Part shown: positions 6,683-64,000 of the stretch, piece after piece
Position numbering within the stretch: the first letter of the stretch is position 1
Layout: the number at the start of each line of letters is the position of its first letter
Assembly: GCA_964525955.1 (NCBI GenBank)
Contig: CAZGKJ010000001.1
Coordinates: forward strand, 4,069 to 68,068
DNA length: 64,000 nt
Origin: an uncultured Candidatus Bathyarchaeia archaeon
GTDB taxonomy: Archaea; Thermoproteota; Bathyarchaeia; TCS64; B23
Direction of reading: 5' to 3'
Made by a program: the position numbers and the translations under genes
Notes under the pieces: model-generated
The model's database searches: none
What the model saw: only the letters and a program-made list of their open reading frames with translations
Told to the model about the DNA's origin: nothing

Positions 6683-6768
6683 CCCTGACCAAGGGTCGGG
6701 GAAGGAGCTGGAGGGAGACCCTGAGAACGGCGAGGCGTCTACTAAGCTACATCACACCCTACTGGCAG

Positions 6769-25877: not shown

Positions 25878-27000
25878 CCTGCTCCACCACCTCGACGCCT
25901 CGCTTATGGAGCTCCATCAGTATCTCCTCGAAGATCCGAGGCTTCAGACCCAGCTTCTCAGGGGGTATCACACCCCTCTCCCCTATTCGCCCCCTCGCCA
26001 ATAGCTGGGCCACTATGGAGGTGGTGTAGCCCGTCGTCCTCGCCATAGCCGTGACGCCTCTCGCCCTGTCGTATCTGTCGAGGAGGTGGAATCTGATGGT
26101 CTTCTCAGCTCCATCCTTCAGACCCTTAACCTCCACCATCATCGCCAGGAGGTCTCCCACCTCCGGCATCCTGAGATGCTTCTCCAGCAGCCTCGCCGTG
26201 AAGCGCTTAGGTGAGACCTTCACCCCCTCAACCTCTATGGGTTCGTCGTCGAAGAGGCCTAGGTCTCTGAGCAGCTTAACCTTCTCCACATGCCCTGGAT
26301 ACCGGAGCGTCTTCTCATACATGCTCTCCACTCCCTTGAAGGTGTCGATGAGGGTTCTCAGGCCATCTGTGTAGAAGGCCTCCAAACGGCCGAGCCCTGG
26401 GAACTCGATCTCCTCGAGGCCGCTGAGAGCTGGAACCTCGACGACTCTGCCTCCCTCGACGATGCGGACGGGCCGCATATACTCGTCGATGAGTCCCTCA
26501 GCAGACCATGTTATCGTATAGCCCAGCGGTGGAACCGGCCTCTCCGGTATGCCTCCGACGAGTATGTGGGCCTCCCTAACCTCGTCGAGCTTCGAGGCCC
26601 CATAGCCCACCAGCATATTCGACAGCCCTGGAGCCACACCGCAGTCGGGGATGAGCGTCATCCCCCTCCGTCGAGCCTCCTCGTCGAGGATCAGCGGATT
26701 CTCAGGTGTGTAGGAGACATCCACCATGTCCACGCCCACCTCGACGGCGGCCTCCATGGCGTTGAAGCCGTAGTCCCCTGGAAGCGCCCCAACGGCGATG
26801 TCGAATCCCCTTAAGGCTTGGGCTATGCTCCCCCTACTTGAGGCGTCGACGGTCATCCACTCCCCGCCGATCTCCCCTGCCACCCGTCGGGCCGCCGTCT
26901 CAAATTTATCTGCGACGGTTATCTCAGCCTCCAGCGACTCGGAGAGGTCTCTGGCGATGGTGGAGCCGATCTTTCCGCAGCCGATGACTATGATTCGCAT
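25858..27000 (-). CDS. Saccharopine-dehydrogenase-family NAD(P)-dependent oxidoreductase
   Basis: An N-terminal Rossmann 'MRIIVIGCGKIGSTIARDL' is followed by a Sacchrp_dh-like C-terminal domain. The likely start is the internal Met at ~27000; the ORF track begins at 27063. Confidence 0.6.
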   Translation of the reverse strand: MRIIVIGCGKIGSTIARDLSESLEAEITVADKFETAARRVAGEIGGEWMTVDASSRGSIAQALRGFDIAVGALPGDYGFNAMEAAVEVGVDMVDVSYTPENPLILDEEARRRGMTLIPDCGVAPGLSNMLVGYGASKLDEVREAHILVGGIPERPVPPLGYTITWSAEGLIDEYMRPVRIVEGGRVVEVPALSGLEEIEFPGLGRLEAFYTDGLRTLIDTFKGVESMYEKTLRYPGHVEKVKLLRDLGLFDDEPIEVEGVKVSPKRFTARLLEKHLRMPEVGDLLAMMVEVKGLKDGAEKTIRFHLLDRYDRARGVTAMARTTGYTTSIVAQLLARGRIGERGVIPPEKLGLKPRIFEEILMELHKRGVEVVEQVDEAGG

Positions 27001-27004
27001 CCCC

Positions 27005-28462: not shown

Positions 28463-28787
28463 TCTGCTCTCTAATCAATTAAGTTTGACGATAACCTCTC
28501 CAGTTGAGTATGAAGGGGTGGGGTCTCCATCACATCGCCCTGCATAGGCGTGGGATTTAGGGTGACGCTCTGGAAATAACTTTAAGTGTGAAGCTATACT
28601 TCTAGGCACCCACTCCCCTTAATTAGGAGCTGTTGTGAAACGCTTCTAAAAATGGTTGATATGCGAACTCTTAACGAGTTATTCTGGCCCTTTCCGTTCT
28701 GAATCTGACCAACTGGACTAATTCGTGGTAGAGGTTTTTAATGTCACTTGGATTTAACCCTAGAGGTTGAAGTATGTATTTCTCCAT

Positions 28788-31658
28788 CTAATATCTGACG
28801 GGATTTCGGGCTTCATGCTCTATATCCATGGGCCTCATCGAGAGAAGCTTTTCAACGGTCTCTAAGAAGTCTCTCGTTTCTCCTCTTCTATCCAACTCGT
28901 CTCGAAGCCATAGAGGATCTATAACAGGTATGCATTCATAGTCTATTACGTTAACGTCTAGAGCACCTTGACCAAGGTTTGTTCGACCGATAACCTCCAT
29001 ACTAGTGTAGGTGGTTATAGAGTTTAATGTAGCAAAGATGAAGCGTGGGTCTAGACTCTTATACTTATCTTTTAACCTTCCTCCGAAAAATCTCTTGTCT
29101 ATCTGCGCACCAGTAATATTGTTCATGTATATTGCGAAATTCTTGTGAATTGCATTTTTAAATATGAACATCGCTCCAGAGGTATCTGGCAATCTAACCC
29201 ACGTCGGCTCATCTATATATTTGACGATGGTTGGGAACCTCCTATTTGTTTTATGTTCTTCGATCACGAATCTATGGCACCATTCCACATAACGTTTAAT
29301 ACCAGGTGCATCTACATCATTAATATTCCCTACCCATATAACGTAATCATCCCTTCTCCGTCTAGGAAGTCTATCTATCCTATAAGTTGAACCTCGAATA
29401 TGTGCGAGTCTCATAAGAGGTCTTAAATACCGTTTTTCCAGCTTCAAAAGTGTTCTAGATATAACACTTTTAAGCTCTAGATAGTTTTCGTCCTCCCTAT
29501 AATACCTCCAGTACTTCGATGGGAGATAGAATAGTTCATTCGCATTAGTAGTGAGTCCTCGATATATTTCAAGCACATCTTTCAATAACACCATTGGTAT
29601 TTCATCTCTGATAAAACCGAATATAAGATTGAGGTATGTTTTTGATCCTCTGAATATACCCCACTTCCCTAGCCTCTCTTCAATCTCCTGAAGGGCTCTC
29701 TTTCTAACGGCTATAACTCTCATATCCTCATTCTCTAGGATCGAATAATTTTCAGCTTCGAGACTACACGAGTCTGCATAAGAGTAAAGACCCTCTATTC
29801 CCTCATAATACCTCTCGTTAGCTGTATAGTCCACAGATGGAGGTGGATCTCCTATTAAGCTTCGCAGAGGCTTCTTAAGGAAGATGAACCTTAATACATG
29901 ATCTGGACTCCTATCTTTTTCAGCAACTATGATATTAGTTATTATCTCAGCATCTTCAAACCACTTCTCAACAAGTGACTCCACAACATAGTGGATCATG
30001 AAGTTTTCCATAAGCCATCTCTTTAAAGGCGAACCATACTCAGCGTTCATCCAAGAGTTTTCAACTATAAACCCTAGTCTCCCCCCTTCCTCCAGTAGTT
30101 TCCCCCCTCCAACTAGGAAGTAAGCGTATATCGAAGCCTTCTTGCTCCAGCCTGAGATATCTGATACCGCCTTCATGAGATACTCCTTATATCTTCTGTC
30201 GTAAAACGCCATAGCCATCTCCTCTTGTCTGGTATACGGTGGATTGGTGACGACATAACTGTACCCTGGGGGGAGCTCTATTTTGAAGAAGTCGCCGTGA
30301 TGAATCTTAGGAGTATACCTGTACATTTTCTTAATCTCTTCAAGTGCTTGAATGTATAGGTTGATCTTGGAGAGCATGGAAGCTAGCTTATCTATGTCAA
30401 TCCCCTCAACGAACTCGAAGACATCCCTCTCTAAACCATATTTTATTCTCCAGAGGTTTAAAGCTCTGACCAGGAAAGTGCCAGAACCACAGGCTAGATC
30501 TAAAATGCGACCAGGTTTATCTAATGTAGCTGTGAGTATGAGGTCTACGATCTTTGTGTCTGTGTAATGCTGCCCTAAAAGATGTCTCCTCTCTTCATAA
30601 ATCAGCCCCTCGAAAATCCTACCGATCACGTCTACGTTTATCTCGCCCCACCGTATCTGATTAAGATAGGAGAGGAGTTGTTTTATCGATGATAAGGAAG
30701 GCTCTACGATAGGAAGTCTATCCACAACATTTGTGCCAAATATCTCCTCAAAGTCGCCGGTTCTCTCAATCGCATACTCAAATAACATATCGAATATTTT
30801 CTTAAATAGCTGTGCATCCGATATGTCGCCTATGGAGGAAAGGTTTTCACGTAGTTTAGCAGCCATTTCAGCATCTATACTTTGAAGCACCATATAGAAG
30901 AGCATTTTAAGCGATAAAGTGTAAAGCTGTTCCTTCAACATCAACATAAGATAGTTCCGAAGCTCGGAGTCATTTCGAGGGCTTTCAAGCCCCCTTTCCT
31001 TTCGCCAACTCTCAAAGCACTTTCTCACCTCTAATTCGCTTCGATATAAATACTCAAGCCTGGTTAACCCCCGTGATGCTCCCTCCTCAATATACCTTCT
31101 TATAGTATAGATAACCTCCGTGCTTAGATCAAGTGTTTTCCCTTCAAGGATTTCCCTAAACCTAAGTAAGAACATTTCAAGATTCCTTCTGGCTTCTCTA
31201 TTCACAGATATCTGCTTATAATCATTTATTGACCTAACCCATGGCATTATCTGAAATGGAAAATCAGAAACAGGAACCCAAATCCTTGTACGCCTCCCAT
31301 GAATATACTCCAAAAGAGTAGGTTGACGCTTCCTAAAAGTAATATATCTGAAGACTTTCAAATATCGCATGTTATGTGTCGCATAAAACTGTAAACCCAT
31401 GTTCTTCCTATACCATTCAGCATATCTTAAAGCCTGCTCGTTCAACTCAGGATCACTTAGTAGAATTTCCGGTCTCTTAACCTCGATCACAGCCACGGGT
31501 TCACCCTTATAGTAAAGTTTAACGTCAGGCTTACCGGAAGGGGTGCGCCAGTTGGCTTCGGCATCAAAGCCTAAACCTTCTCCTACTTCCTTAATAACAG
31601 AGATGAGTTCCGTTACATAGGTCTCTTCTGTAGGCTCCTCAACCATAATATTCAACAA
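28788..31658 (-). CDS. Type IIG restriction-modification enzyme (fused PD-(D/E)xK endonuclease + gamma-class N6-adenine DNA methyltransferase + TRD; MmeI-like)
   Basis: The N-terminus has 'GKPDVKLYYKGEPVAVIEVKRPE' (PD...EVK nuclease motif). The central MTase has motif I 'LDLACGSGTFL' and motif IV 'VVTNPPYT'. The 956-aa single polypeptide is markedly more AT-rich than its flanks. Confidence 0.75.
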   Translation of the reverse strand: MLNIMVEEPTEETYVTELISVIKEVGEGLGFDAEANWRTPSGKPDVKLYYKGEPVAVIEVKRPEILLSDPELNEQALRYAEWYRKNMGLQFYATHNMRYLKVFRYITFRKRQPTLLEYIHGRRTRIWVPVSDFPFQIMPWVRSINDYKQISVNREARRNLEMFLLRFREILEGKTLDLSTEVIYTIRRYIEEGASRGLTRLEYLYRSELEVRKCFESWRKERGLESPRNDSELRNYLMLMLKEQLYTLSLKMLFYMVLQSIDAEMAAKLRENLSSIGDISDAQLFKKIFDMLFEYAIERTGDFEEIFGTNVVDRLPIVEPSLSSIKQLLSYLNQIRWGEINVDVIGRIFEGLIYEERRHLLGQHYTDTKIVDLILTATLDKPGRILDLACGSGTFLVRALNLWRIKYGLERDVFEFVEGIDIDKLASMLSKINLYIQALEEIKKMYRYTPKIHHGDFFKIELPPGYSYVVTNPPYTRQEEMAMAFYDRRYKEYLMKAVSDISGWSKKASIYAYFLVGGGKLLEEGGRLGFIVENSWMNAEYGSPLKRWLMENFMIHYVVESLVEKWFEDAEIITNIIVAEKDRSPDHVLRFIFLKKPLRSLIGDPPPSVDYTANERYYEGIEGLYSYADSCSLEAENYSILENEDMRVIAVRKRALQEIEERLGKWGIFRGSKTYLNLIFGFIRDEIPMVLLKDVLEIYRGLTTNANELFYLPSKYWRYYREDENYLELKSVISRTLLKLEKRYLRPLMRLAHIRGSTYRIDRLPRRRRDDYVIWVGNINDVDAPGIKRYVEWCHRFVIEEHKTNRRFPTIVKYIDEPTWVRLPDTSGAMFIFKNAIHKNFAIYMNNITGAQIDKRFFGGRLKDKYKSLDPRFIFATLNSITTYTSMEVIGRTNLGQGALDVNVIDYECIPVIDPLWLRDELDRRGETRDFLETVEKLLSMRPMDIEHEARNPVRY

Positions 31659-31753
31659 TCATTAACTAAATACAACTTATAAACTAATCCAAATCGCCCT
31701 CCCTTGCTAAGGGTGTAAAGCCTAGCCTAAATAGAGGGAAAATTCTGGGGCCT

Positions 31754-32500
31754 TCATACTCCTATGCAGGGCGCCAGGTAGTAGATGAGCTTCCCCTTCG
31801 GTATCTCGAAGTTCAGCTTGATGGGCATATCCGTTGAGAGCTCCAGTGTGGCTACCTCGCTGGAGGCTGAGGCCGCATTTATGATGTCTTGGAGGTAGCT
31901 TAGGGTGAAGGTGGCTGAGCTCGGCTCCTCCACCTTCAGCTCCAATAGGTCTTCGGCCTCGAGTGTCCAGACGCTGGAGACGCTTCCGATGTCGCCCTCG
32001 GCGCTGATCTTGAATTCCTCCTCGTTGATCTCCAGCTTCACATGCTCCCCGACGAGGGAGGCATCCTTAATCGCCCTCTTCAGGCTTGGGGTCAGTATCC
32101 TCGCTGAGGCTTTGAAGAATATCTTCGGCGTCGGGGTCTCCTCTTCCAGGGGTTCGAGGAGGGGCATGAGGAATCTCCGCTTGTGGCCTCCCCTCATACA
32201 CTCTATGGAGAGCCTCCCCTCCTGGAGGGTCATCTTAACCTGCTCCCCCCTCTCAACCCTGTCGAGGAATTTCAGGAGCTCCCTTATGTTGACGGTCAGC
32301 CTCGTCTCCTCATCGCAGAGATATTCATCGAAGAAGTCCCTCGGCAATTCGAAGTCCACCATGGCGACGTGGCTTGGATCCATGGCGAGGAGCTTCATCT
32401 CCTCCTCATCGATGTTGAAGCTCCCCTCCTCCACGATGACGGAGAGGGCCTTAACGAGCCTCTTGAAGGCGTCTATGCTGGAGAGCTGAACCTCGAACAA
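31754..32500 (-). CDS. pcna: DNA polymerase sliding clamp PCNA
   Basis: A 248-aa protein with PCNA-like N- and C-terminal domains ('MFEVQLSSIDAFKRLVKALSVIVEEGSFNIDEEEMKL...'). Confidence 0.85.
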   Translation of the reverse strand: MFEVQLSSIDAFKRLVKALSVIVEEGSFNIDEEEMKLLAMDPSHVAMVDFELPRDFFDEYLCDEETRLTVNIRELLKFLDRVERGEQVKMTLQEGRLSIECMRGGHKRRFLMPLLEPLEEETPTPKIFFKASARILTPSLKRAIKDASLVGEHVKLEINEEEFKISAEGDIGSVSSVWTLEAEDLLELKVEEPSSATFTLSYLQDIINAASASSEVATLELSTDMPIKLNFEIPKGKLIYYLAPCIGV

Positions 32501-45508: not shown

Positions 45509-45572
45509 GTCGACACCCTCTAATAGTTGGAGGGGGAATGCTTAACATCTCCCCTCGCCTAAACTCTATCAA

Positions 45573-45899
45573 ATGGGTTTGGAGCTATCGACGGCGGAGG
45601 CCCTCCTAGAGGATCGCCCCCTCAAGGCCGCCCTACTGGAGTTGGGGAACGCAGTCATCGCCCTCTTCTGGCTTGGAGATGAGCCGAGGCTGGGAACGCT
45701 CACCATCTCCATGCCTGGAGGCGTCTCATCACCCCTCCTCGGCGATCGAGACCGAGTTCTCAGTCAGGTCATCGCTGAGCGCCTCGCCCACCTCTATGGG
45801 AAGATGGCCCTCGTCTCCATAAATCTCCCCCCAGACCTCGAGGTCTCCGCCGGTAGGGTGCTGCTTAAGCTGGTTGGGGAGCTGGTGAGGGAGCGTTGA
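45573..45899 (+). CDS. Hypothetical protein (108 aa), first gene of the mevalonate-pathway operon
   Basis: ORF whose stop overlaps the UbiD-like start; no motif was recognised. Confidence 0.3.
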   Translation: MGLELSTAEALLEDRPLKAALLELGNAVIALFWLGDEPRLGTLTISMPGGVSSPLLGDRDRVLSQVIAERLAHLYGKMALVSINLPPDLEVSAGRVLLKLVGELVRER

Positions 45900-47239
45900 G
45901 CGATCTAAGGGGCTTCCTCAGGGAGCTTGACTCGAGGGGGGAGCTCCTCCACATAGATGAGGAGCTATCAACCCGATTCGAGGTCGCCGCCGTTATGAAG
46001 CATCTCGACGGCAGACCCCTCCTATTCACGAGGATCGAGGGCTATGAGAGCAGAATCGCTGCGGGTCTCTGCTCCAATAGGCGTCTAATCCAAGAGGCCT
46101 TAGGCGTTGAGGGCCTGGAGCTCTATGAGAGACTCCTCTCAGCCGTGAGGAATCCGAGGAGATGCGAAGTCGGCGACGGCCCCGTGAAGGAGAGAGCGGT
46201 GGATAGGCCAAGGCTGAGCCAATTCCCCATCCTCACCCACTTCGAGGGGGATCCAGGCCCCTACATCACATCGGCAGCCCTCTACGCCAGGACTCCCGAC
46301 GGCGAGATAGAAAACGTCTCCATACATCGCCTCCTCGTCCTCGACGACCATAGATTGACCCTCAGGATAGTTCCAAGACATCTCTATCGAATCGTTGAGG
46401 CGGCGAGGGAGGGCGGCGTAGAGAGCATAGATGTCAGCATCTCCATAGGGCTTCACCCAGCCATTCTCCTCGCAGCGTCGACGCCCGCCCCCTACGGAGT
46501 CTCGGAGTTCGATGTGGCCAACGCCCTCCTGGATGGAGGCCTCAAACTGACGGAGTGTGAGCATATCGACGCCCTGGCTCCGGCTGACGCAGAGCTGGTT
46601 TTAGAGGGGCGTTTGAAGGTGGATGAGACTGCTGTTGAGGGGCCCTTCGTCGATTTGACTGGAACCTACGACGTTGAGCGGAGTCAGCCGGTCATCGAGG
46701 TTGTCGGAGCCATGTATAGGGCTGACTACATCTATCAGGCACTCCTCCCCTCCGGGATGGAGCATCGCCTATTGATGGGCCTCCCCAGGGAGGCTAAGAT
46801 ATGGGACTACGTCCGAGGTGTGACGCCTCATGTCAGGGGTGTAAACCTCACATCTGGGGGATGTGGATGGCTCCACTGCGTCGTCAGCATCCGGAAGGTT
46901 CGGGAGGGAGACCCTAAGAATGTTTTGATGGCCGTCTTCGCAGCCCATCCAAGCCTTAAGCACGCCGTCGTCGTCGATGAGGACATCGACCCCTACAACC
47001 CTGAGGAGGTTGAGTGGGCCATAGCGACGAGATTCAGGGGTGATGAGGATCTGTTGATCATACCTCATGTCAGGGTTTCAAGCCTCGATCCGGCTTCGGA
47101 TCAGAGGCTTGAGCTCGGCTGTAAGGTGGGCGTCGACGCCACGAGGCCGCTGTCTAAGCCTGAACGCCACTTTAAGAGGGCTGAGATACCTGTTTCGGAG
47201 CGTGTTAGACGGCTTTTGGGGAGGCTGGGATGTATCTAA
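45896..47239 (+). CDS. UbiD-family decarboxylase, probable trans-anhydromevalonate-5-phosphate decarboxylase of the archaeal mevalonate pathway
   Basis: It has a UbiD-family N-terminus ('...LLHIDEELSTRFEVAAVMKHLDGRPLLFTRIEGY...'). It lies immediately upstream of the AcnX large and small subunits, the pairing described for the archaeal-type mevalonate pathway. Confidence 0.65.
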   Translation: MSDLRGFLRELDSRGELLHIDEELSTRFEVAAVMKHLDGRPLLFTRIEGYESRIAAGLCSNRRLIQEALGVEGLELYERLLSAVRNPRRCEVGDGPVKERAVDRPRLSQFPILTHFEGDPGPYITSAALYARTPDGEIENVSIHRLLVLDDHRLTLRIVPRHLYRIVEAAREGGVESIDVSISIGLHPAILLAASTPAPYGVSEFDVANALLDGGLKLTECEHIDALAPADAELVLEGRLKVDETAVEGPFVDLTGTYDVERSQPVIEVVGAMYRADYIYQALLPSGMEHRLLMGLPREAKIWDYVRGVTPHVRGVNLTSGGCGWLHCVVSIRKVREGDPKNVLMAVFAAHPSLKHAVVVDEDIDPYNPEEVEWAIATRFRGDEDLLIIPHVRVSSLDPASDQRLELGCKVGVDATRPLSKPERHFKRAEIPVSERVRRLLGRLGCI

Positions 47240-48420
47240 CCCGACTTGAGGAGGAGATGCTTGAAGGCGAGATGGGGGAGGCCGTGGCGAGGGCCATGAG
47301 CCTCCTCGTCGCCCTCGGGGAGGTCTTCGAGGCTGAGAGGCTAATCGAAGTGGAGAGCGCCCACATCTCAGGAGTCTCCTATAAGAATCTCGGCGAAGCT
47401 GGATTGGAGTATCTCGAGGAGCAGGCTGAGCTGGGGGCCCATGTGCGTATAAGGGCGACGCTCAACCCAGCTGGAATGGACTTGGAGCGGTGGGGGGAGA
47501 TGGGTGTCTCCCCTGAATTCGCTGAGGGTCAGCTTAGGGTGATCGAGGCCTATAGGCGTATGGGCGTTGAGGCCACCTGCACCTGTACACCCTATCTCAT
47601 AGGTCATAGGCCGAGGGCTGGAAGCCAGGTCGCCTGGGCTGAGTCCTCAGCCGTCGCCTACGCCAACTCCGTTCTCGGCGCCAGAACTAATAGGGAGACT
47701 GGGCCTACAGCCCTCGCCTCAGCTATCACGGGTAGGGCTCCTCTACACGGATATCGATTGGAGGAGAATAGGAGGCCGAGCATCATCATCGATGTGAAGG
47801 CCCACCTCAGCTCCAAATTCGATTATGGAGCCCTCGGCTACCTCATCGGAGAGATCGCAGGTCGAAGCGTCCCCTACATCAGGGGTTTGAGGGGTGCAAG
47901 CATAGAGCAGCTTAAAGCCCTCTCAGCGGCCATAGCCACCTCAGGTGGTGTGGCCCTCTACCACATCGAGGGCTTAACCCCCGAGGCCAGGAGGATGACT
48001 CGACACCTTGGGGATTTGGAGCATATACCAATAAAGCCCGACGGCCTGAGGGAGGTGGCTGAACGCTTCCAGGGGGCTGGGGAGGAGGCCATAATCTGCG
48101 TCGGCTGCCCCCACTGCAGCCTCAGGGAGCTGATGGAGGTCGCCATGCTGCTGGAGCGTCGAAGCTGTGAGAGGTTATGGGTCTTCACAAGCAGGGATGT
48201 CTACATGAAGGCTGAGCGGCTGGGCATAGTCAGGGCCATCGAGGAGGCTGGGGGCAGGGTCTACCGGGATACCTGCATGGTGGTTGCGCCTCTTAGGGAG
48301 ATGGGGTGGAGGGAGGTGGCGACGAACAGCTTTAAGGCGGCCCACTACCTCTCCTCCATGGGCCTCACGGTTCAGGTTGCGCCTCTAAGGGAGCTTCTGG
48401 GGAGGGGTCATGAGGATTAG
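47230..48420 (+). CDS. Aconitase X catalytic (large) subunit, probable phosphomevalonate dehydratase large subunit
   Basis: AcnX/DUF521-like sequence ('...AHISGVSYKNLGEAGLEYLEE...CTCTPYL...'). Confidence 0.65.
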   Translation: MYLTRLEEEMLEGEMGEAVARAMSLLVALGEVFEAERLIEVESAHISGVSYKNLGEAGLEYLEEQAELGAHVRIRATLNPAGMDLERWGEMGVSPEFAEGQLRVIEAYRRMGVEATCTCTPYLIGHRPRAGSQVAWAESSAVAYANSVLGARTNRETGPTALASAITGRAPLHGYRLEENRRPSIIIDVKAHLSSKFDYGALGYLIGEIAGRSVPYIRGLRGASIEQLKALSAAIATSGGVALYHIEGLTPEARRMTRHLGDLEHIPIKPDGLREVAERFQGAGEEAIICVGCPHCSLRELMEVAMLLERRSCERLWVFTSRDVYMKAERLGIVRAIEEAGGRVYRDTCMVVAPLREMGWREVATNSFKAAHYLSSMGLTVQVAPLRELLGRGHED

Positions 48421-48805
48421 GGGTAGAAGGATAGTCGGCGGATACGCTGAGGGGGAGGCCATAATAAGCGGCGCACCCTTCAGCTTCTACGGCGGCGTAG
48501 ACCCCGACACAGGTGTCATAACTGAGCCTGGCCATCCCCTTGAGGGTGAGAGCATAGCTGGAAAGGTCTTCATCTTCCCCCATGGGAGGGGAAGCACCGT
48601 TGGCTGCTACATAATCTATCGTATGCATCGTCGGGGGACGGCTCCGGCGGCCATCATAAACCTGGAGACGGAGACGATCATCGCCACGGGATGCGCCATG
48701 GCTGGAATCCCACTTATGGATCGCCTTGAGGAGAATCCGTTGAGGCTGCTTAGGAACGGTGATCTCGTCGCCGTCAACGCCGATGAGGGATATATAGAGA
48801 TTTAG
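48410..48805 (+). CDS. Aconitase X swivel (small) subunit, probable phosphomevalonate dehydratase small subunit
   Basis: DUF126-like sequence ('...GEAIISGAPFSFYGGVDPDTGVI...GKVFIFPHGRGSTVG...'). Confidence 0.65.
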   Translation: MRIRGRRIVGGYAEGEAIISGAPFSFYGGVDPDTGVITEPGHPLEGESIAGKVFIFPHGRGSTVGCYIIYRMHRRGTAPAAIINLETETIIATGCAMAGIPLMDRLEENPLRLLRNGDLVAVNADEGYIEI

Positions 48806-53279: not shown

Positions 53280-53930
53280 TTACATGGGTGCTATCTTCAG
53301 GACTTGGAGGAAGAACTGCGCCCTGCCGGAGAGCATCGCCATCCTGAAGAGGACGGTGTTGCCGAAGTATGCTCCAAGGCCGATCATGATGATCCAGCGT
53401 CCAAGCCTCGTCGCATAGCCCATTCCACCCCTATGCTCCCATGTCAGGACGAAGTACATGACGGCGCAGATGGTTCCTATCGCTATGTAGATGTAGTTCC
53501 ACCAGTCAACAGCCCCCGCCCCAGTGGCCGGCGGGGTGATCGTCGAGATCACCTGGTTTGTGATGTTGGGTATGAGGACTCCCCTCATACCGAGTCCGAA
53601 GCCGGCTCCTACGAGGATGGCGATTGGATATCGGCTTATCCACCTATACTTCGGCGTCAATAGGAAGAACATCATGAAGCCGAGGATGATGGGTATGACG
53701 TACCAGACCTTCCCCTGCATTAGAGGCGGCCCAACCATCCTTATCGTCGTCGTAATCGTCGTCCTCACGAGCATGATGGCCAGCATCAATCCGACGTAGG
53801 TGTGCTCCGCGAACCTGAAGGCAGGATTCTCCTTATACAGCGGGTAGCTGTAGATCATCAGCATCAGCAGCCATGCAATCCACAGGCCAGCGATTCCAGC
53901 TGGATCGGTTGGGTAGGGCATCCACCTCAC
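53280..53930 (-). CDS. Uncharacterized polytopic membrane protein, cassette A subunit 4/4 (paralog of 61190..61816)
   Basis: About 6 hydrophobic helices. The motifs 'FRFAEHTY', 'PKYRWISRYPIAILVGAGFGLGMRG' and 'GRWIIM...YFGNT' are shared with the cassette-B protein. Its stop overlaps the upstream gene. Confidence 0.5.
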   Translation of the reverse strand: MRWMPYPTDPAGIAGLWIAWLLMLMIYSYPLYKENPAFRFAEHTYVGLMLAIMLVRTTITTTIRMVGPPLMQGKVWYVIPIILGFMMFFLLTPKYRWISRYPIAILVGAGFGLGMRGVLIPNITNQVISTITPPATGAGAVDWWNYIYIAIGTICAVMYFVLTWEHRGGMGYATRLGRWIIMIGLGAYFGNTVLFRMAMLSGRAQFFLQVLKIAPM

Positions 53931-54766
53931 CTCCTCCTACCCCTGCTGGCGAAGTAGCCGATGTTCGCCAGCACTACGGCTATGATGACGAGGATGTGGG
54001 AGATGTTTATGGCTCCCATCCTGATGGTTGCCTCACCAGGCTCTCCGATGAGCTTCTCCAATTCAGCTCCTCCCCTGACTCCGACGCTCATACCGAAGAG
54101 GACTCCGGACTTGTAGAAGGGCATGTAGCTGGAGCCCAGCATCGCGATCCCTATCTCGGCGACGGGTACACCATAGGGGATGCGCCACTGCCTGATGTAG
54201 TAGTCGCAGACGTCGCCGGTGTCTCCGGAGAGAACCAGCTTGATATCCGTCGCCTTGTCGACGTTCTTCATCATCGGAATCTCGTCGAGGGGCGTCCCAT
54301 AGTTATCCGTCTCGAATATGCTTCTAATCGAGGAGGCGAGCTGGGCTACGGCCGCCTCCTGGTAGGGGTAGTATCCAAGGTAGACGTAGTCCTCTCCATA
54401 CTTTAGGTCCTTGAAGTAGTCCTCGCACCTCCTCAGAACCTCCTCATAGCTCAGGTCGACGTCGTAGTAGGCTCCCCAGAAGATGATCTTGGCGCCCTCC
54501 TTTATCAGGAGCTTTGTGCAGGCGGCGAAGGCTGGCATACACTCAGGCCAGGCGCTCACTCCGAAGGCTATATTCATCACGACTACGTCTCCAGGCTCCA
54601 CCATCTCTATTATGCCCTCATAGAGGTCTCTGGTGGATGGGCTGATGCTGATGGGGAACATGATGGGCCTGATGAAGGGTATCATGAGGCCGATGAACAG
54701 TATCCAGTAGAAGACTCGGCGATCAATCCTCGCCAGCTTCTCCCAGAAGGTGAGCTCCTCACTCAT
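53927..54766 (-). CDS. Uncharacterized bitopic membrane protein (N- and C-terminal TM, central soluble domain), cassette A subunit 3/4 (paralog of 61813..62655)
   Basis: Hydrophobic N-terminus 'VFYWILFIGLMIPFI' and C-terminus 'ILVIIAVVLANIGYF'. The central domain aligns along its length with the cassette-B protein. Confidence 0.5.
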   Translation of the reverse strand: MSEELTFWEKLARIDRRVFYWILFIGLMIPFIRPIMFPISISPSTRDLYEGIIEMVEPGDVVVMNIAFGVSAWPECMPAFAACTKLLIKEGAKIIFWGAYYDVDLSYEEVLRRCEDYFKDLKYGEDYVYLGYYPYQEAAVAQLASSIRSIFETDNYGTPLDEIPMMKNVDKATDIKLVLSGDTGDVCDYYIRQWRIPYGVPVAEIGIAMLGSSYMPFYKSGVLFGMSVGVRGGAELEKLIGEPGEATIRMGAINISHILVIIAVVLANIGYFASRGRRR

Positions 54767-55425
54767 TCACCAGCCACCTCCCCATAGAATCCTCTCTCCC
54801 TGCCCAGCAGCGCCCTGAATCCGTAGGCGAGCATGCCGAAGGCTGCGACGATTAGGAAGCATCTCATCCCAGGCACCTGACCATAGTCGAGGAACCATCG
54901 CCCTATCACCGGTATGCCGCTCCAGATGACTCCCCCTATCGGGGCGTTGGTTAGGATGACGAAGCAGCCTGCGATGAGCAGCAGGGCCGCATCTATGTTC
55001 CTCGCCCTGAAGGCCCTGTAGGCGGCTGAGAAGATGTAGAATCCCGTGATGGCGTATAGAGTTTGGCCCAGGCTTGTGTAAGGCCACGTGAAGAGCCAGT
55101 TGTAGAGGAGGTTAGTCATGGCATCCTGCTTTGTGACATAGCCCGCGAGGCCACTGAAGAGAGTGATGAGGAAGATGATCCATAGCCAGATACTGAAGGG
55201 CCATAGTCCAGCCCTCCTCTTCTGGATGTTCTTGGCATGCTCAGACAGCAGCCTTATGGCTCCCAATGCGATGGAGATGTTCGCGATGATGGTGGCCCAG
55301 GTTCGAAGCTCCTCAGCGACGTTCCAGGTGCCTATGAAGAAGAACTCTATGAACATCAGTATGGTGACTATGGCGGTTATGAGGTAGACAACCTCCCTCC
55401 TCAAAACCTCAGCCATATTCACCAC
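54763..55425 (-). CDS. Uncharacterized polytopic membrane protein, cassette A subunit 2/4 (paralog of 62658..63293)
   Basis: About 6 hydrophobic helices. 'AYRAFRARNIDAALLL' is matched by 'AYKALRIRNIDSLFLF' in cassette B. Confidence 0.5.
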   Translation of the reverse strand: MVNMAEVLRREVVYLITAIVTILMFIEFFFIGTWNVAEELRTWATIIANISIALGAIRLLSEHAKNIQKRRAGLWPFSIWLWIIFLITLFSGLAGYVTKQDAMTNLLYNWLFTWPYTSLGQTLYAITGFYIFSAAYRAFRARNIDAALLLIAGCFVILTNAPIGGVIWSGIPVIGRWFLDYGQVPGMRCFLIVAAFGMLAYGFRALLGRERGFYGEVAGE

Positions 55426-56231
55426 CTCAAAACGTTTATCAGCGCTGGATTCCTGGCGAAGCCGAGTATGAAGCCGATGATCATCAAGGCGATCAATATG
55501 AACTTCATTATGTCCTCACCTCTAAGGCAGCCGAGGATGTCTGGATCCTTGCTGATGGAGGCTCCGGCGGCGTATAGCTCCTCGGCCAGCAGGACGTAGT
55601 CGCAGGTGGCGACGAGGAAGGGCATCTGGTGGGTGTTGGCGGTTCCACCGATCTGGAAGGCTCCGATGGTGTTGCCGCCCTCACCCATTACGACGGACTC
55701 GTAGTAGAAGCCTCCTATCAGGAAGTTTGTTGCAGGCCTCTCCCTCTGGAAGTAGCCGAGGACGGCCGTCAGGTATGGTGACTGACCGGCGATGAAGTGT
55801 ATCATGTCTGGGGAGAACTCCTCAGGCTTCCCCTCAGCCATGTAGGCTGTTCGGAGAGTCTCCTCTGTGAGGGGGAGCGCCGTCGGGATGGGCATGAAGA
55901 CGTCGAGCTTCACACCCGTCCTGGCGCACTCCCTCGCTATGTAGCCGAGGATGCTTATAGCAGCCAGAACCTGTGGACCCTGCGTGGGGTCGTTCAGGTC
56001 TCCGGCGATGCCGGGTGTGAACATCACCGGCCTACCCATCTCAGCGGCCCTGCCGATCCCCTCAGGTATGGCGGCCATGGGTGGAAGCGTTCTGACCGGG
56101 ATCTCCCTTCCCTTCCTGCCGAGATACATGAATATGTAGAAGAGGATGTAGGAGAGCACCAGTATTACGAGGGCCATCCCTCTCCCTGAGACGATGATGG
56201 CCATATCCTCTTCCTCCCTTTTCCCCACCAT
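55419..56231 (-). CDS. Uncharacterized bitopic membrane protein, cassette A subunit 1/4 (paralog of 63303..>64000)
   Basis: N-terminal TM, then a soluble domain ('...GRAAEMGRPVMFTPGIAG...IGGTANTHQMPFLVATCDYVLLAEE...'), then a C-terminal TM. It aligns with the cassette-B protein ('GRAVEMGRPVFDIIGMG...IGGTARLYQIPFFAAVCDYVLIGEE'). Confidence 0.5.
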   Translation of the reverse strand: MVGKREEEDMAIIVSGRGMALVILVLSYILFYIFMYLGRKGREIPVRTLPPMAAIPEGIGRAAEMGRPVMFTPGIAGDLNDPTQGPQVLAAISILGYIARECARTGVKLDVFMPIPTALPLTEETLRTAYMAEGKPEEFSPDMIHFIAGQSPYLTAVLGYFQRERPATNFLIGGFYYESVVMGEGGNTIGAFQIGGTANTHQMPFLVATCDYVLLAEELYAAGASISKDPDILGCLRGEDIMKFILIALMIIGFILGFARNPALINVLRW

Positions 56232-61189: not shown

Positions 61190-61816
61190 TTAGTGGATGA
61201 TTCCCAGCCAGTCCCTCAGCAGGAATATGATTCTCCCCTGATACATCGAGAACCTCGTCATTATCGTGTTTCCGAAGGCTCCTCCGAAGGCGGCGAGCAT
61301 CATCCATCTCCCTATCTTCGGAATCCAGCCTGCAGCCCCCTTGTGTATCCCCTCGTATGTGAAGATGAAGTGCGTTAGAGCCGTGACTGTTCCAACGAAG
61401 ACTATTATGTTGTTGAGTGTTCCGAGGGGCGTCGTCGCTATTAGGGGCTTGGCCGTAGCTGCGATCTGCTTGATGAAGTCTGCGTGGATGGCTCCCCTAA
61501 TCGATATGCCGACTCCTATCCCGACGAGGAAGGCGATGGGGTAGCGGTATATCCAGTAGTATTTGGGGTGATATCTGGTGTAGATGAGGATGCCGAGGAT
61601 TATCGGAATCCAGTAGCTCGGCTCCCCACCGGCTATATGAGTCCATCCATATAGGATGACGTTCTTAACACCCATCACTATGGCGTGGCCGGCCGCTGCT
61701 CCTATGAAGGTGTACTCGGCGAATCTGAAGAATATGTTGTCCCTGAAGGCGTAGCTTGTCGCCACTATTGTGAAGAAGGCTGCGATCCAGACGCCAACAT
61801 CCGTTGAGACCATCAC
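61190..61816 (-). CDS. Uncharacterized polytopic membrane protein, cassette B subunit 4/4 (paralog of 53280..53930)
   Basis: Shares 'FRFAEYTF', 'PKYYWIYRYPIAFLVGIGVGISIRG' and 'GRWMML...AFGNT' with its cassette-A partner. Confidence 0.5.
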   Translation of the reverse strand: MMVSTDVGVWIAAFFTIVATSYAFRDNIFFRFAEYTFIGAAAGHAIVMGVKNVILYGWTHIAGGEPSYWIPIILGILIYTRYHPKYYWIYRYPIAFLVGIGVGISIRGAIHADFIKQIAATAKPLIATTPLGTLNNIIVFVGTVTALTHFIFTYEGIHKGAAGWIPKIGRWMMLAAFGGAFGNTIMTRFSMYQGRIIFLLRDWLGIIH

Positions 61817-62655
61817 TTCTCACCCTCCCTCTTAGATAATCTGGAGCCCCAGTAGGAGATGTTGCCGATGATGATGAAGATGAGGACGATGGTTTGAGTT
61901 GCGCTCAGGATGTCCGTCGCCCTCATGGCGTCCCCTGGGTGGTGGGTCATATACTCCATGTCCGCAGCCCCCTTGATGCCGTCGAGGATGCCCTTGAGGG
62001 CTCCGGCGTCGTAGTATGGCTTTAGGGATGGGGTCATCATGCTTAGGAATCCGCCGACGACTGGGAGCTTGTATCGGCTGTAGGCCTGGTAGACCCATCC
62101 CTCGGCTATCCCCCCGCTCGTCGTTAAGTAGGCCACCAGGGCGAAGCTCTCCGGGCCGGTTATCTCCTGGAGTAGCGGTATCTGCTCGATGGATGTTCCA
62201 TAGTAGTCCTCCTTCACCGCCGTGTGTATGTCGCCGAGGACGGCTGCCATAGCCGTCTGCTCCCCGGCTATGTATCCGAGGAATACATAGTCCCTCCCAT
62301 ACTCTGCTCCATAGTTCTTCTCAGGCTTCACCTTCTCCATGATCAATGGATACATCATCGATCCCTCCAGCGCCGTCGCCATGATGACGATCTTCAGATG
62401 CTTCTCGAACATCTGGTGGAGGGCTGCGATGGCGCATGGGCCGAGGGTTGGATAGCCCCCTGAGCCGAATCCTATGTCGAAGAGGACTATTGAGCCCTCT
62501 GGTAGGGAGTCGACGGTGTTATACCAGTCCTTAGACATCTTCCCAACCATTATTGGCAGTCCGAAGGGTCTGATCGCTGGAACTATCATCGCTATCAGAA
62601 CGATCGTCAGAACTATCTCCCTTGGGATAGCCGCTAACTTCTCCCACATGGACAT
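61813..62655 (-). CDS. Uncharacterized bitopic membrane protein, cassette B subunit 3/4 (paralog of 53927..54766)
   Basis: Same N-TM / soluble / C-TM architecture as its cassette-A partner, and it aligns along its full length. Confidence 0.5.
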   Translation of the reverse strand: MSMWEKLAAIPREIVLTIVLIAMIVPAIRPFGLPIMVGKMSKDWYNTVDSLPEGSIVLFDIGFGSGGYPTLGPCAIAALHQMFEKHLKIVIMATALEGSMMYPLIMEKVKPEKNYGAEYGRDYVFLGYIAGEQTAMAAVLGDIHTAVKEDYYGTSIEQIPLLQEITGPESFALVAYLTTSGGIAEGWVYQAYSRYKLPVVGGFLSMMTPSLKPYYDAGALKGILDGIKGAADMEYMTHHPGDAMRATDILSATQTIVLIFIIIGNISYWGSRLSKREGEK

Positions 62656-62657
62656 CT

Positions 62658-63293
62658 CTACGCCCTCCCCAAATATCCCCTCTCCAATCCCAGGATGGTT
62701 CTGATGCCTAGAACTACTGCGCCTATGCCGACTCCGATCCTTATGCCCCTATAGGCTCCGCTTATAATCGTCTTGAATATCCACTCCCTGGTGTAGAAGA
62801 ATCCTGGGAGGGCGGCTGGGAACATCGGGGTGTTTCCGAGGACGACGAAGATGGCTGTTAGGAATAGGAATAGGGAGTCGATGTTCCTTATCCTCAAGGC
62901 CTTGTAGGCTCCTATAGCCATGTAGAAGCATAGGGATGAATACATCGTTGCGCCGAGGGGTAGCATTATGGCGTTGTATATCCACTTATACTGCCAGCTT
63001 GCATCGAACTTCCCAGTTGATAGGCCGACTACGACGAATACTATCAGCATGAATAGGAGCCATCCACTTAGGGGCCATAGCTCCCCCCTCTCAGCTATAC
63101 GCTTCCCATGAACTCTGAATAGGTTGACGGCTCCAACTCCCAGGGCGAAGGCGGTGACGACGATCCCCCAATTCTTCAGAACCGTGAATGTCCCCCTTAT
63201 GGCTGGGACGGTTGTGTAGAAGTCGAGCACCGCTATCACGCCAACTATGAAGGTTATTAGAAGGGGGATATACTTCCTAACAACCTCCGACAT
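62658..63293 (-). CDS. Uncharacterized polytopic membrane protein, cassette B subunit 2/4 (paralog of 54763..55425)
   Basis: Hydrophobic profile and shared motifs with its cassette-A partner. Confidence 0.5.
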   Translation of the reverse strand: MSEVVRKYIPLLITFIVGVIAVLDFYTTVPAIRGTFTVLKNWGIVVTAFALGVGAVNLFRVHGKRIAERGELWPLSGWLLFMLIVFVVVGLSTGKFDASWQYKWIYNAIMLPLGATMYSSLCFYMAIGAYKALRIRNIDSLFLFLTAIFVVLGNTPMFPAALPGFFYTREWIFKTIISGAYRGIRIGVGIGAVVLGIRTILGLERGYLGRA

Positions 63294-63302
63294 ATTCCCA
63301 CC

Positions 63303-64000
63303 TCATATACTCATAAGCTGTGAGACCCATGGGAGACCTGCCGTAGCCAGTATCGCGCCGATGACCCCGAGGATGATGGCGGCTATCTTATACCAGTCCT
63401 GGCAGGCTATTGAACCTGTTTGGAGGGGGTCTCCAGATAGGTAGGCTCCAGCTGCGAATGTCTCCTCACCTATTAGGACGTAGTCGCAGACGGCTGCGAA
63501 GAAGGGTATCTGATATAGCCTCGCCGTCCCCCCGATCTCTAAGGCCCCCAATCTATCGAAGGTCTCGGCGAACATCATTGACTCAGCCCAGAAGGGGCCG
63601 ACCATTATCACGGAGGCGGGCTTCAGCCTCGAAGCCATGCCGAGTATTCCGCTGGCCCAGGCGAATTGGGTTCCTGAGAGGTAGGGGAGCTGCTCATCCA
63701 CATTTAGCTCCTCTATCTTACCCTCAGCTAGGTATCCCTCCCTAACCATCTCTATGGCCACGGGCATCACGTCGACCGATGCCTGTGGGGCGTATAGCTT
63801 CGCCCCAAGCCTTGCACATAGGTGGGCGACGTAGTTTAGAACCGATAGTCCAGCGACTGTTTGGGTTGCATATATGTCGGTGAATGTCCCCATCCCTATT
63901 ATGTCGAATACGGGCCTCCCCATCTCAACGGCTCTTCCAACCGCCTCCTCCATGGCGTCTAAGGCTGGCAGCCGCCTGATCCTCACCTTACCCCTCTTCC
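63303..64000 (-). CDS. Uncharacterized bitopic membrane protein, cassette B subunit 1/4 (paralog of 55419..56231); N-terminus lies beyond the window end
   Basis: The reading frame stays open to position 64000 ('...KRGKGVRIRRLPALD...'). It aligns with the cassette-A protein starting from that protein's residue ~45, so about 40+ residues and any upstream genes are outside the window. Confidence 0.5.
   Translation of the reverse strand, partial: KRGKVRIRRLPALDAMEEAVGRAVEMGRPVFDIIGMGTFTDIYATQTVAGLSVLNYVAHLCARLGAKLYAPQASVDVMPVAIEMVREGYLAEGKIEELNVDEQLPYLSGTQFAWASGILGMASRLKPASVIMVGPFWAESMMFAETFDRLGALEIGGTARLYQIPFFAAVCDYVLIGEETFAAGAYLSGDPLQTGSIACQDWYKIAAIILGVIGAILATAGLPWVSQLMSI

Follow-up and report, generated by a model that had tools for sequence, protein, structure and literature searches.

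A PAC4/LpdD-fold protein as a candidate UbiD helper at the head of an archaeal-type mevalonate operon in Bathyarchaeia

What is the role of a small protein whose gene leads an operon for a UbiD-family decarboxylase and a split AcnX dehydratase, and does this operon serve the mevalonate pathway? The window analysed here is a stretch of 64,000 nucleotides from an uncultured Bathyarchaeia archaeon. Within it, the ORF listing gives four overlapping genes on the + strand between positions 45573 and 48805: orfX (45573-45899, 108 aa, ATG start), a UbiD-family gene (45896-47239, 447 aa, TTG start), and the genes for AcnX-L (47230-48420, 396 aa) and AcnX-S (48410-48805, 131 aa). A first-pass annotation of this DNA had described the same layout, and its boundaries were borne out, including the overlaps 47230/47239 and 48410/48420 (10 and 11 bp) and the overlap of the orfX stop with the UbiD start (4 bp, TTGA). 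Our reading of the whole, to which we assign a probability of about 0.5, is that this is an archaeal mevalonate operon and that orfX encodes a prFMN chaperone or maturation helper dedicated to the UbiD enzyme.

A GGAGG-like motif precedes all three internal starts, and no Shine-Dalgarno-like motif was found in the inspected sequence upstream of the orfX ATG. This fits a transcript that is predicted to begin with orfX and to be leaderless or to have a short leader. The presumed promoter region is the 64-bp divergent intergenic region (45509-45572) between orfX and a metallophosphoesterase gene on the - strand. The operon is set among housekeeping genes (tRNA synthetase, ABC transporters, ribosomal proteins and similar); these remaining ORFs of the window were recognised only from their translations.

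The sequences of the two AcnX proteins support their assignment as the large and small subunit of a phosphomevalonate dehydratase (PMDh), which here is split over tandem genes. The large subunit (AcnX type II, formerly DUF521) matches AcnX PF04412 with 514.5 bits, and the small subunit (formerly DUF126) matches AcnX_swivel PF01989 with 117.1 bits and NF003046 with 166.7 bits (cut-off 163). Against 7cnr_A, the PMDh of T. kodakarensis (TkPMDh), AcnX-L scored 347.6 bits (E=1e-102), compared with 213.9-219.1 bits against the type-I AcnX structures 7d2r, 7cnq and 7cnp; the NCBIfam model for the C3LHyp dehydratase gave 295 bits where 700 are required. All three [4Fe-4S] cysteines are retained in alignment with those of TkPMDh, namely C119 (CTPY), C293 (GCPH) and C349 (DTCMVV). 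They are the counterparts of C122, C297 and C356, the cluster ligands of ApPMDh (PMC10040528). Dehydratase activity is thus predicted for the pair.

The UbiD protein has the full architecture of its family, with UbiD_N (55.8 bits), UbiD (195.1) and UbiD_C (130.3) all above cut-off, and it scores 397 bits against TIGR00148 (cut-off 245). It stays far below all specific equivalog cut-offs of NCBIfam (e.g. 251.7 vs 650, 178.8 vs 495.9, 135.5 vs 788); none was reached for aromatic-acid, ubiquinone or menaquinone decarboxylases, MqnL-type, VdcC or phenylphosphate carboxylase. NCBIfam hence does not place it among the aromatic-acid decarboxylases. The nearest solved structure in the PDB search was 6h6v (325 bits), which we take to be PtHmfF, a furan-dicarboxylate decarboxylase. 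One could therefore regard the protein as an HmfF-like (hetero)aromatic-acid decarboxylase and not as an anhydromevalonate phosphate decarboxylase (AMPD), in which case the cluster would not be a mevalonate operon; NCBIfam holds no AMPD-specific model. However, this structural match is uninformative because the PDB contains no AMPD structure. The UbiD gene is translationally coupled, through the 10-bp overlap, to a bona fide PMDh pair in the arrangement of M. mazei MM_1524-1526. The same UbiD and AcnX cluster is kept in Nitrososphaerota, whose UbiDs are 39% identical to the one studied here. Moreover, the gene lies among housekeeping genes, and no aromatic-catabolic genes were found in its neighbourhood in the window. 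We regard the HmfF-like assignment as highly improbable; homology and context support the UbiD protein as an AMPD.

The locus is thus supported as an archaeal-type mevalonate operon of the trans-anhydromevalonate-phosphate branch, as the first-pass annotation had proposed from UbiD and split AcnX. PMDh, with its [4Fe-4S] cluster, would dehydrate mevalonate 5-phosphate to trans-anhydromevalonate 5-phosphate, which AMPD would decarboxylate to isopentenyl phosphate using prenylated FMN (prFMN). The cofactor would be made by a UbiX encoded outside this locus. Flavoprotein (UbiX), GHMP-kinase and amino-acid-kinase domains were all absent from those window ORFs that are covered by a Pfam scan or by precomputed annotation. 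That no UbiX gene is nearby had been remarked on before and is correct, but it is not a peculiarity: the prFMN synthase gene also lies away from the AMPD and PMDh genes in M. mazei, A. pernix and T. kodakarensis. Likewise, the three-gene signature is real but not new, since AMPD, PMDh-L and PMDh-S are already known as the cluster MM_1526, MM_1525 and MM_1524 in M. mazei. Our locus shares with this cluster and with the A. pernix pathway enzymes the adjacency of the three enzyme genes, the conserved PMDh cysteine ligands and the location of UbiX elsewhere. It differs in the fourth gene at its head, which in Bathyarchaeia and Nitrososphaerota is the one most tightly conserved beside UbiD. In the published cluster descriptions covered by a limited literature search, no PAC4/LpdD-like gene is reported with AMPD/PMDh clusters. 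The novelty is confined to orfX.

orfX is a real gene and not a chance ORF, because it has 50 homologues with 44-97% identity, its family comprises 123 cluster representatives in 1.84 billion proteins, and its dN/dS of about 0.14-0.19 indicates purifying selection. In the homologue surveys the family was limited to Bathyarchaeia and Nitrososphaerota. The protein contains no Cys and has no NCBIfam match at E<=0.01. The first-pass annotation had suggested a profile search with the 108-aa protein; in the PDB, the family profile matched human PAC4 only (E=5.9e-10). PAC4 was also matched at E<=0.01 by 60 of 80 family members. Against the PAC4 family PF16093, orfX itself reached 23.4 bits and the Cenarchaeum homologue 30.3 bits, both under the gathering cut-off of 31; despite this, homology to PAC4 is supported at the profile level. 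A confident AlphaFold model of orfX has a Pba3/Pba4-like fold, a six-stranded sheet with two helices, and matches only PAC3, PAC4, Pba3/4 and LpdD. Its structural alignments with LpdD have 13-16% identity.

Family alignments of 80 and 23 sequences proved too diverse to yield patterns for the retrieval of loci, and the position of orfX next to UbiD was surveyed across genomes through tight orfX subgroups. The counts are therefore biased to members in which the LGTLAVA/LLGDRN or YLR/MKTL motifs are retained, and loci on four short contigs (L070, L071, L073, L074) were uninformative. In four lineages, orfX was directly upstream of UbiD at 6/6, 2/2, 6/6 and 17/17 loci. The same order, as a rule with the 4-bp overlap, occurs in Bathyarchaeia, soil Nitrososphaerales and Cenarchaeum-type genomes, between unrelated flanks; AcnX is not always retained beside the pair. 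Because the link between orfX and the UbiD gene persists in two classes of archaea, orfX probably acts as a helper of the UbiD decarboxylase that had not been recognised before. In the Bathyarchaeum clade, orfX is followed by an FAD-dependent gene, mostly at gaps of 100-160 bp. In the orfX tree these loci group together without interruption, so this arrangement looks like a single rearrangement and we do not consider it a functional link. A distant member of the family adjoins only genes for UPF0147, p27, ERCC4 and HD proteins.

The co-occurrence of orfX with this operon across archaea, a check proposed earlier, therefore held in several lineages but not throughout. In one large Bathyarchaeia clade, clade 2, most species no longer have the two genes side by side: an intact UbiD adjoins orfX in only 13 of 58, UbiD remnants in four, and no UbiD in the other 41. 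Since orfX is equally conserved with or without an adjacent UbiD, its function does not require co-transcription with UbiD and might even be independent of UbiD. Could orfX then be an archaeal PAC4-type chaperone, acting on the proteasome or another complex and unrelated to UbiD, with the adjacency reflecting inherited gene order? PAC4 is its sole relative at the sequence level. Purifying selection on orfX is the same whether or not UbiD is adjacent, the four UbiD remnants lie beside an intact orfX, and the distant member has no UbiD neighbour. Yet three deeply separated lineages, with flanks that have nothing in common, all keep the pair in one orientation and with a tight junction, whereas neutral synteny should decay along with the flanks. 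PAC4/PSMG4 and PAC3/PSMG3 (yeast Pba4 and Pba3; PF16093 and PF10178) are assembly chaperones of the eukaryotic 20S proteasome. Unlike these, orfX falls under the Pfam cut-off and is genomically linked to a decarboxylase: neither the gene clusters that recur around orfX nor the precomputed annotations there include a proteasome gene, and no PbaA/B or PAC3-like paralogue was found in any of the neighbourhoods examined. In particular, no paralogue that could be a PAC3-like second subunit was present among the ORFs lying upstream on the same strand in the Nitrososphaerota loci. Archaeal 20S proteasomes built from one alpha and one beta type self-assemble, so there is little need for a PAC3/4-type factor, and orfX occurs in archaea with self-assembling proteasomes. 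Finally, LpdD acts on UbiD enzymes, and no other prokaryotic protein of this fold has a known function. A role unrelated to UbiD is in our opinion improbable.

A second alternative, to which we grant somewhat more weight while still thinking it unlikely, is that orfX serves AMPD as a structural subunit in stoichiometric amounts or as a factor in oligomer assembly, in the manner of VdcD or of PAC3/PAC4. The 4-bp overlap of start and stop favours co-translation with UbiD at matched levels, as is typical of subunits; proteins of the PAC3/PAC4 fold act through binding to surfaces of partner proteins; and the characterised UbiD, HmfF and AroY enzymes are hexamers. A small obligate subunit in a UbiD enzyme also has a precedent, namely VdcD/BsdD/EcdD, the small subunit of VdcC-type phenolic acid decarboxylases, which is needed for the activity of its partner and like orfX is a small protein encoded next to a UbiD-family gene. 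VdcD, however, is a Cys-containing zinc-binding protein and an integral part of the enzyme, whereas orfX has another fold, no Cys and no match to the VdcD model. The separation of orfX from UbiD in most clade-2 species would be unusual for an obligate subunit. The restriction of the family to Bathyarchaeia and Nitrososphaerota also speaks against this role, as AMPD is reported from most archaea, and so does the M. mazei enzyme, which is functional without such a partner. A Cys-rich 81-aa ORF upstream of the marine orfX was considered for a VdcD-like role as well; it had no Pfam or NCBIfam match and the idea is unsupported.

We thus return to orfX as a helper in cofactor supply. The first-pass annotation had put the small ORF forward as a candidate accessory factor, and the PAC4/LpdD fold together with the coupling to UbiD in several lineages strengthens this view. 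The closest functional parallel is LpdD of Lactobacillus plantarum (lp_0272; PDB 8PO5, 8PZO), the prFMNH2-binding chaperone of the gallate decarboxylase LpdBCD (PMC10865409). Judged from fold and gene linkage alone, a chaperone mechanism seems most likely for orfX. By analogy with LpdD, it would capture reduced prFMN and pass it to apo-AMPD; alternatively, it would aid cofactor loading or maturation in another way, so that active holo-AMPD forms. The two proteins have in common the Pba3/Pba4-like fold and a gene tied to the UbiD/UbiX system, but they differ in much else. LpdD is bacterial and serves an aromatic-acid decarboxylase, and its gene is co-transcribed with UbiX; orfX is archaeal and coupled to the UbiD gene itself, and its putative partner AMPD belongs to primary metabolism. 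The prFMN maturases PhdC/YclD, which raise the fraction of active holo-UbiD, are like orfX accessory-type proteins encoded alongside UbiD/UbiX genes. They are, however, flavin-binding oxidative maturases of another fold, to which orfX shows no similarity.

Several observations count against the chaperone role. LpdD was not listed at E<=10 in PDB sequence searches with three family profiles (A1, A2, A7), so no sequence similarity to it is detectable, and by sequence the closest protein remains eukaryotic PAC4 with its role in proteasome assembly. LpdD has a conserved metal (Mn) site of His35, His61 and Asp63, which cannot exist in orfX because its family has no conserved His; this is concluded from the 80-sequence alignment, where no column exceeds 21% His. 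The single His of orfX, His73, is not conserved. The linkage of orfX to UbiD, where that of LpdD is to UbiX, and the scarcity of intact neighbouring UbiD genes in clade 2 likewise argue against it. In addition, M. mazei AMPD works in E. coli when only a prFMN synthase is added, so a helper of the orfX type is not generally needed.

A bolder proposal is that orfX stands for an archaeal branch of the PAC3/PAC4 superfamily, and that one ancient chaperone lineage, ancestrally devoted to maturing UbiD-type, prFMN-dependent decarboxylases, unites bacterial LpdD with the orfX family and with eukaryotic PAC4. On this view the proteasome-assembly chaperones PAC3/PAC4 would derive from a chaperone of cofactor or enzyme maturation, and orfX would be a required fifth component, not known before, for AMPD activation in the archaeal mevalonate pathway of Bathyarchaeia and ammonia-oxidising Nitrososphaerota. 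We consider this doubtful, though slightly less so than the subunit role.

Without a helper role for orfX, nothing would set this locus apart from other archaeal mevalonate operons. With such a role, orfX would be a new and directly testable component, in Bathyarchaeia and ammonia-oxidising archaea, of the pathway to all isoprenoid lipid precursors of most archaea, in which AMPD is the prFMN-dependent step. The AMPD cofactor is oxygen-sensitive, and the ammonia-oxidising archaea, being aerobes, have to keep prFMNH2 protected. No prFMNH2-binding chaperone other than LpdD has been described so far, and LpdD is reported to be rare; to find its fold and gene linkage again in another family, unrelated in sequence, would suggest this fold as a general solution. 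UbiD enzymes are sought as biocatalysts for (de)carboxylation and are often inactive on isolation, and orfX proteins could then provide new engineering parts, also for the ATP-saving archaeal mevalonate pathway. PAC3 and PAC4 are treated as eukaryotic, and in the literature covered by our limited search the only archaeal homologues named are those of PAC1/PAC2 (PbaA/PbaB). An archaeal relative of PAC4 that is detectable by sequence and tied to a decarboxylase thus offers a concrete hypothesis for the origin of PAC3/PAC4.

The four ORFs listed in the first-pass annotation were all found at their positions on the plus strand: orfX (108 aa, 45573-45899), a UbiD gene (447 aa, 45896-47239), the AcnX large subunit (396 aa, 47230-48420) and the AcnX swivel subunit (131 aa, 48410-48805). 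Its naming of the three enzyme genes was borne out by Pfam and NCBIfam. The UbiD protein has the complete Pfam architecture (UbiD_N, UbiD, UbiD_C) and scored 397 bits with TIGR00148 (cut-off 245), the large subunit matched PF04412 with 514.5 bits, and the swivel subunit matched PF01989 with 117 bits and NF003046 with 166.7 bits (cut-off 163). The genes overlap as claimed: the orfX stop and the UbiD start share the 4 bp TTGA, and the two following junctions overlap by 10 bp (UbiD/AcnX-L) and 11 bp (AcnX-L/AcnX-S). A GGAGG-like motif precedes every internal start and none precedes orfX, as would be expected for the leading gene of a single transcript. A 31-kb ENA metagenome contig encodes an identical UbiD protein in unchanged gene order. 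The surroundings are of housekeeping type (SRP54, deoxyhypusine synthase, aIF5A, AglB/STT3, NAD kinase, an HD protein and thymidylate kinase).

Elsewhere in the window, positions 28001-32000 form a low-GC island (GC 0.43-0.44 versus 0.54-0.59 around it) with an ORF at 28788-31658 (-) for a 956-aa fused restriction-modification enzyme of the Eco57I/N6_Mtase type; it has the appearance of a defence gene that was acquired horizontally and set between housekeeping genes. A run of three genes at 24978-28462 (-) may be a methyl-transfer module of this Bathyarchaeon: their products are an MtrH-like methyltransferase (314 bits), a protein resembling saccharopine dehydrogenase and a protein of the MttB family (trimethylamine methyltransferase superfamily, 359.6 bits). 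A four-gene membrane-protein cluster occurs twice, at 53280-56231 (-) and 61190-63986 (-); from their translations the copies appear paralogous. Pfam recognised only one member, as DUF6754. Between the copies lie genes for a MutL-type protein (PF13941), a barrel-sandwich protein and a class-III aminotransferase.

The archaeal-type mevalonate pathway, to which the operon had been assigned, is the dominant route across archaea (PMC11052028). AcnX-L matched the phosphomevalonate dehydratase (PMDh) structure of T.kodakarensis, 7cnr, with 347.6 bits (E=1e-102), compared with 213.9-219.1 bits for type-I cis-3-hydroxy-L-proline dehydratases. Its Cys119 (CTPY), Cys293 (GCPH) and Cys349 (DTCMVV) line up with the T.kodakarensis cysteines and are the counterparts of A.pernix PMDh C122, C297 and C356, which mutagenesis identified as [4Fe-4S] ligands (PMC10040528). 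The same gene arrangement is found in M.mazei, where MM_1526 is the anhydromevalonate phosphate decarboxylase (AMPD) and MM_1525 and MM_1524 are the large and small PMDh subunits (PMC12547664); hence the UbiD-AcnXL-AcnXS module is not new. Together, the 7cnr match, the cysteines and the M.mazei arrangement support the pathway assignment at the level of sequence. That the UbiD gene encodes something other than AMPD seems highly improbable to us. The UbiD protein stayed below every NCBIfam cut-off for VdcC, menaquinone, ubiquinone and phenylphosphate enzymes. Its nearest solved structure, in a PDB that holds no AMPD for comparison, was 6h6v (325 bits), which we take to be PtHmfF.

The annotation had also remarked on a missing UbiX. 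Indeed no UbiX, and likewise no GHMP kinase or IPK-type domain, was found among those ORFs of the window that were scanned with Pfam or had precomputed annotation, but this is no anomaly, since the prFMN synthase of M.mazei (MM_1871) is also distant (PMC12547664) and in A.pernix and T.kodakarensis the decarboxylase lies far from its UbiX partner (PMC8184944).

orfX is a real gene. Its 50 homologues share 44-97% identity, the nearest being labelled Candidatus Bathyarchaeota, and the motifs LGNAV.A.FW, EPRLGT, LLGDRD and GKMALVS are strongly conserved. With a dN/dS of 0.14-0.19 the gene is under purifying selection. An exhaustive search of 1.84 billion cluster representatives gave only 123 matches to its profile.

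At the sequence level, the sole known relative of orfX is the eukaryotic proteasome assembly chaperone PAC4. The family profile found PAC4 among all PDB sequences at E=1.8e-6, and a profile of 80 sequences did so at E=5.9e-10 over a 66-residue alignment without gaps, with no other PDB sequence below E=10. PAC4 was matched by 60 of the 80 family members and PF21758 ("PAC_bac") by 10. The window orfX itself reached 23.4 bits with PF16093 (PAC4), under the cut-off of 31. The similarity is not hidden, because some database entries of the family already carry automatic PF16093 hits. orfX is homologous to PAC4, yet it lacks a proteasome context: no proteasome genes were seen among the recurrent neighbour gene clusters and precomputed annotations of the orfX loci, and no PAC3-like paralogue among the same-strand ORFs upstream of orfX in the Nitrososphaerota loci.

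An AlphaFold2 prediction from 29 sequences gave a confident model (pLDDT 89.4, pTM 0.83) of six strands and two helices. With this model, Foldseek retrieved from the PDB LpdD (8pzh_A, E=1.8e-6), PAC4 (8qyj_M, E=3.8e-6) and 8po5 (TM 0.69); below E=0.03 only LpdD, PAC3, PAC4 and Pba3/Pba4 were found, and the next unrelated match was at E ~0.6. A VdcD-like identity of orfX was rejected. LpdD is a small protein of the L.plantarum gallate decarboxylase system with a Pba3/4-like fold, which binds only reduced prFMN, helps to activate UbiD enzymes and is rarely found beside UbiD genes (Gahloth et al., PMC10865409). As reported for LpdD, the conserved residues of orfX (N26, G35-G41, P48-S52, L55-D60, G76-K77) fall mostly in loops of the predicted model. 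Among known systems LpdD would be the likeliest functional analogue of orfX, although no sequence similarity between the two was detected and the LpdD His/His/Asp metal site is missing from the orfX family, which has no conserved His.

Near and middling relatives within Bathyarchaeia (46-60% identity) all have the order orfX-UbiD-AcnXL-AcnXS, but their flanks are just as constant, and conserved synteny within one class proves little. A second, deeply diverged clade of Bathyarchaeia (clade 2) was retrieved by scanning one genome per GTDB species, which gave 59 loci, 58 of them assessable. Counted per species, which are not independent events, intact UbiD lies directly downstream of orfX in 13 of the 58 loci (11 with a 4-bp overlap), four have UbiD fragments only, and in 41 UbiD is absent from the 6 kb around orfX. 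Conservation extends to the genes upstream (Clp1-like kinase, DUF460-like gene, CarS, RadB, HhH-GPD glycosylase), whereas the downstream gene varies. The largest group without UbiD has an FAD-dependent gene after orfX, and its members stand together as a single unbroken block of a neighbour-joining orfX tree; therefore this arrangement probably reflects a single rearrangement. A functional link is also disfavoured by the loose gaps, mostly 100-160 bp. The UbiD-adjacent loci are scattered elsewhere in the tree and include the basal members, so orfX-UbiD adjacency is ancestral.

Several further observations concern these Bathyarchaeia loci (numbered L, with coordinates within each locus). The FAD-dependent protein of the Bathyarchaeum-like clade has 509 aa (PF21688 and other FAD/NAD-binding families), is encoded on the same strand as orfX and is often followed by a DUF6989-like gene (L020, L026, L027, L030-L034, L036-L038, L040, L041, L043, L045, L047, L048, L051, L058, L062). 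In four species all that is left of UbiD beside an intact orfX is short pieces or a remnant with several frameshifts (L013 and L028, both 6372-6721; L029, 6360-6533; L057, 6435-7746); orfX of L013 and L028 differ by dN 0.018 and dS 0.072. AMPD may have been relocated or replaced in these lineages, and a published survey reports a haloarchaea-type PMD in some Bathyarchaeia. Further Thermoproteota genomes with orfX away from UbiD are CP070820, CP070826, CP070791, CP070730 and CP070679. Where UbiD-AcnX is missing, an HD/HD_assoc_2 gene often directly follows orfX (L007, L016, L019, L025, L056, L071), and several of the loci have genes for thymidylate kinase and p27 beyond it. In the window these genes are found just past the far end of the operon, which gives the impression of a clean excision of UbiD-AcnX. 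P0112, a predicted protein of 115 aa, consists of the N-terminal half of an orfX homologue (to the LLGD-type loop) that continues in frame into the start of a UbiD (LRGFLREID...); whether deletion allele or assembly chimera, it shows the adjacency once more. One contig with a typical Bathyarchaeia orfX locus (L017, CAYGAW010000052.1, 67% identity) was probably mis-binned, since its MAG bears the label 'uncultured Anaerolineales bacterium'.

What decides the matter is the evidence from beyond Bathyarchaeia. Nitrososphaerota have the family members that diverge most, and in one such MAG orfX-UbiD-AcnXL-AcnXS is flanked by a glycosyltransferase gene and a gene of the beta-lactamase fold. On soil and peat metagenome contigs of the same subgroup UbiD follows orfX by 9-18 bp in 17 of 19 cases, the other two contigs ending less than 70 bp past orfX, and both AcnX genes come next wherever the sequence extends far enough. 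Cenarchaeum-type genomes, including Mb-scale contigs, have a 4-bp orfX/UbiD overlap, with the pair placed between PhoU and argininosuccinate lyase/primase genes and no AcnX nearby; on a TARA ocean contig orfX overlaps by 4 bp an ORF whose translation resembles the N-terminus of UbiD. The Nitrososphaerota UbiDs share 39% identity and their NCBIfam pattern with the window UbiD and therefore seem, as far as can be told, to be the same orthologue. Since the pair is kept in Bathyarchaeia and Nitrososphaerota despite unrelated flanks, orfX-UbiD is the conserved unit. Co-occurrence of orfX with the operon across archaea, raised in the annotation, was scored as adjacency: the pair is found in both groups but not at the 41 clade-2 loci, in motif-based surveys biased towards well-conserved orfX members.

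Upstream of orfX, the marine Cenarchaeum/TARA group has a conserved Cys-rich ORF of 81-101 aa ending 6-16 bp ahead of it (L075-L080, 5750-5995 (+); L072, 417-722 (+)). It is zinc-ribbon-like with several CxxC-type pairs, matches none of the Pfam and NCBIfam models, among them VdcD, and possibly forms a three-gene unit with orfX and UbiD. In thirteen soil Nitrososphaerales-type loci, another conserved ORF, hydrophobic and 118-142 aa long (88 aa in a copy cut at a contig end), lies on the same strand 1-319 bp upstream (e.g. L068, 1454-1810 (+)), probably a small membrane protein, without a family match. In two Cenarchaeum-type genomes OrfB_IS605/Cas12f-like TnpB genes (L077, 1-1065; L079, 11480-12333) stand in for part of the otherwise conserved flank a few kb from orfX-UbiD.

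In the best-supported interpretation, to which we give a probability of about 0.5, orfX serves the AMPD-type UbiD as its dedicated accessory, most likely an LpdD-like one. It would hold reduced prFMN and pass it to the apo-enzyme, or help in another way with cofactor loading and maturation. The PAC4/LpdD fold and the conserved UbiD coupling point towards the accessory factor suggested by the annotation; the loop position of the conserved residues and the accessory maturase reported as helpful to PtHmfF are supporting details. We do not put the probability higher because the opposing evidence is substantial. Besides the missing LpdD similarity and metal site, orfX stands apart from UbiD, even beside degraded UbiD, in most clade-2 species under equal constraint, and M.mazei AMPD works in E.coli with only prFMN synthase added (PMC12547664). 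The 4-bp coupling would also be compatible with orfX being a stoichiometric AMPD subunit or a factor that assembles AMPD oligomers, which we consider rather unlikely. Separation from UbiD in clade 2, together with the PAC4 homology, would also fit a PAC4-type chaperone without any relation to UbiD; yet the pair is kept in three lineages with different flanks, which makes this quite unlikely.

None of the open-access literature that was searched describes a PAC4/LpdD-like protein as partner to AMPD in archaea, or any homologue of PAC3/PAC4 there; the only ones named are PbaA/B, which are homologous to PAC1/PAC2. Very tentatively, LpdD, orfX and PAC4 could represent one ancient chaperone lineage, and the eukaryotic proteasome chaperones might then derive from a UbiD/prFMN maturation factor. 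To the already known enzyme module, orfX adds a small protein that is associated with UbiD and has a PAC3/4-like fold.
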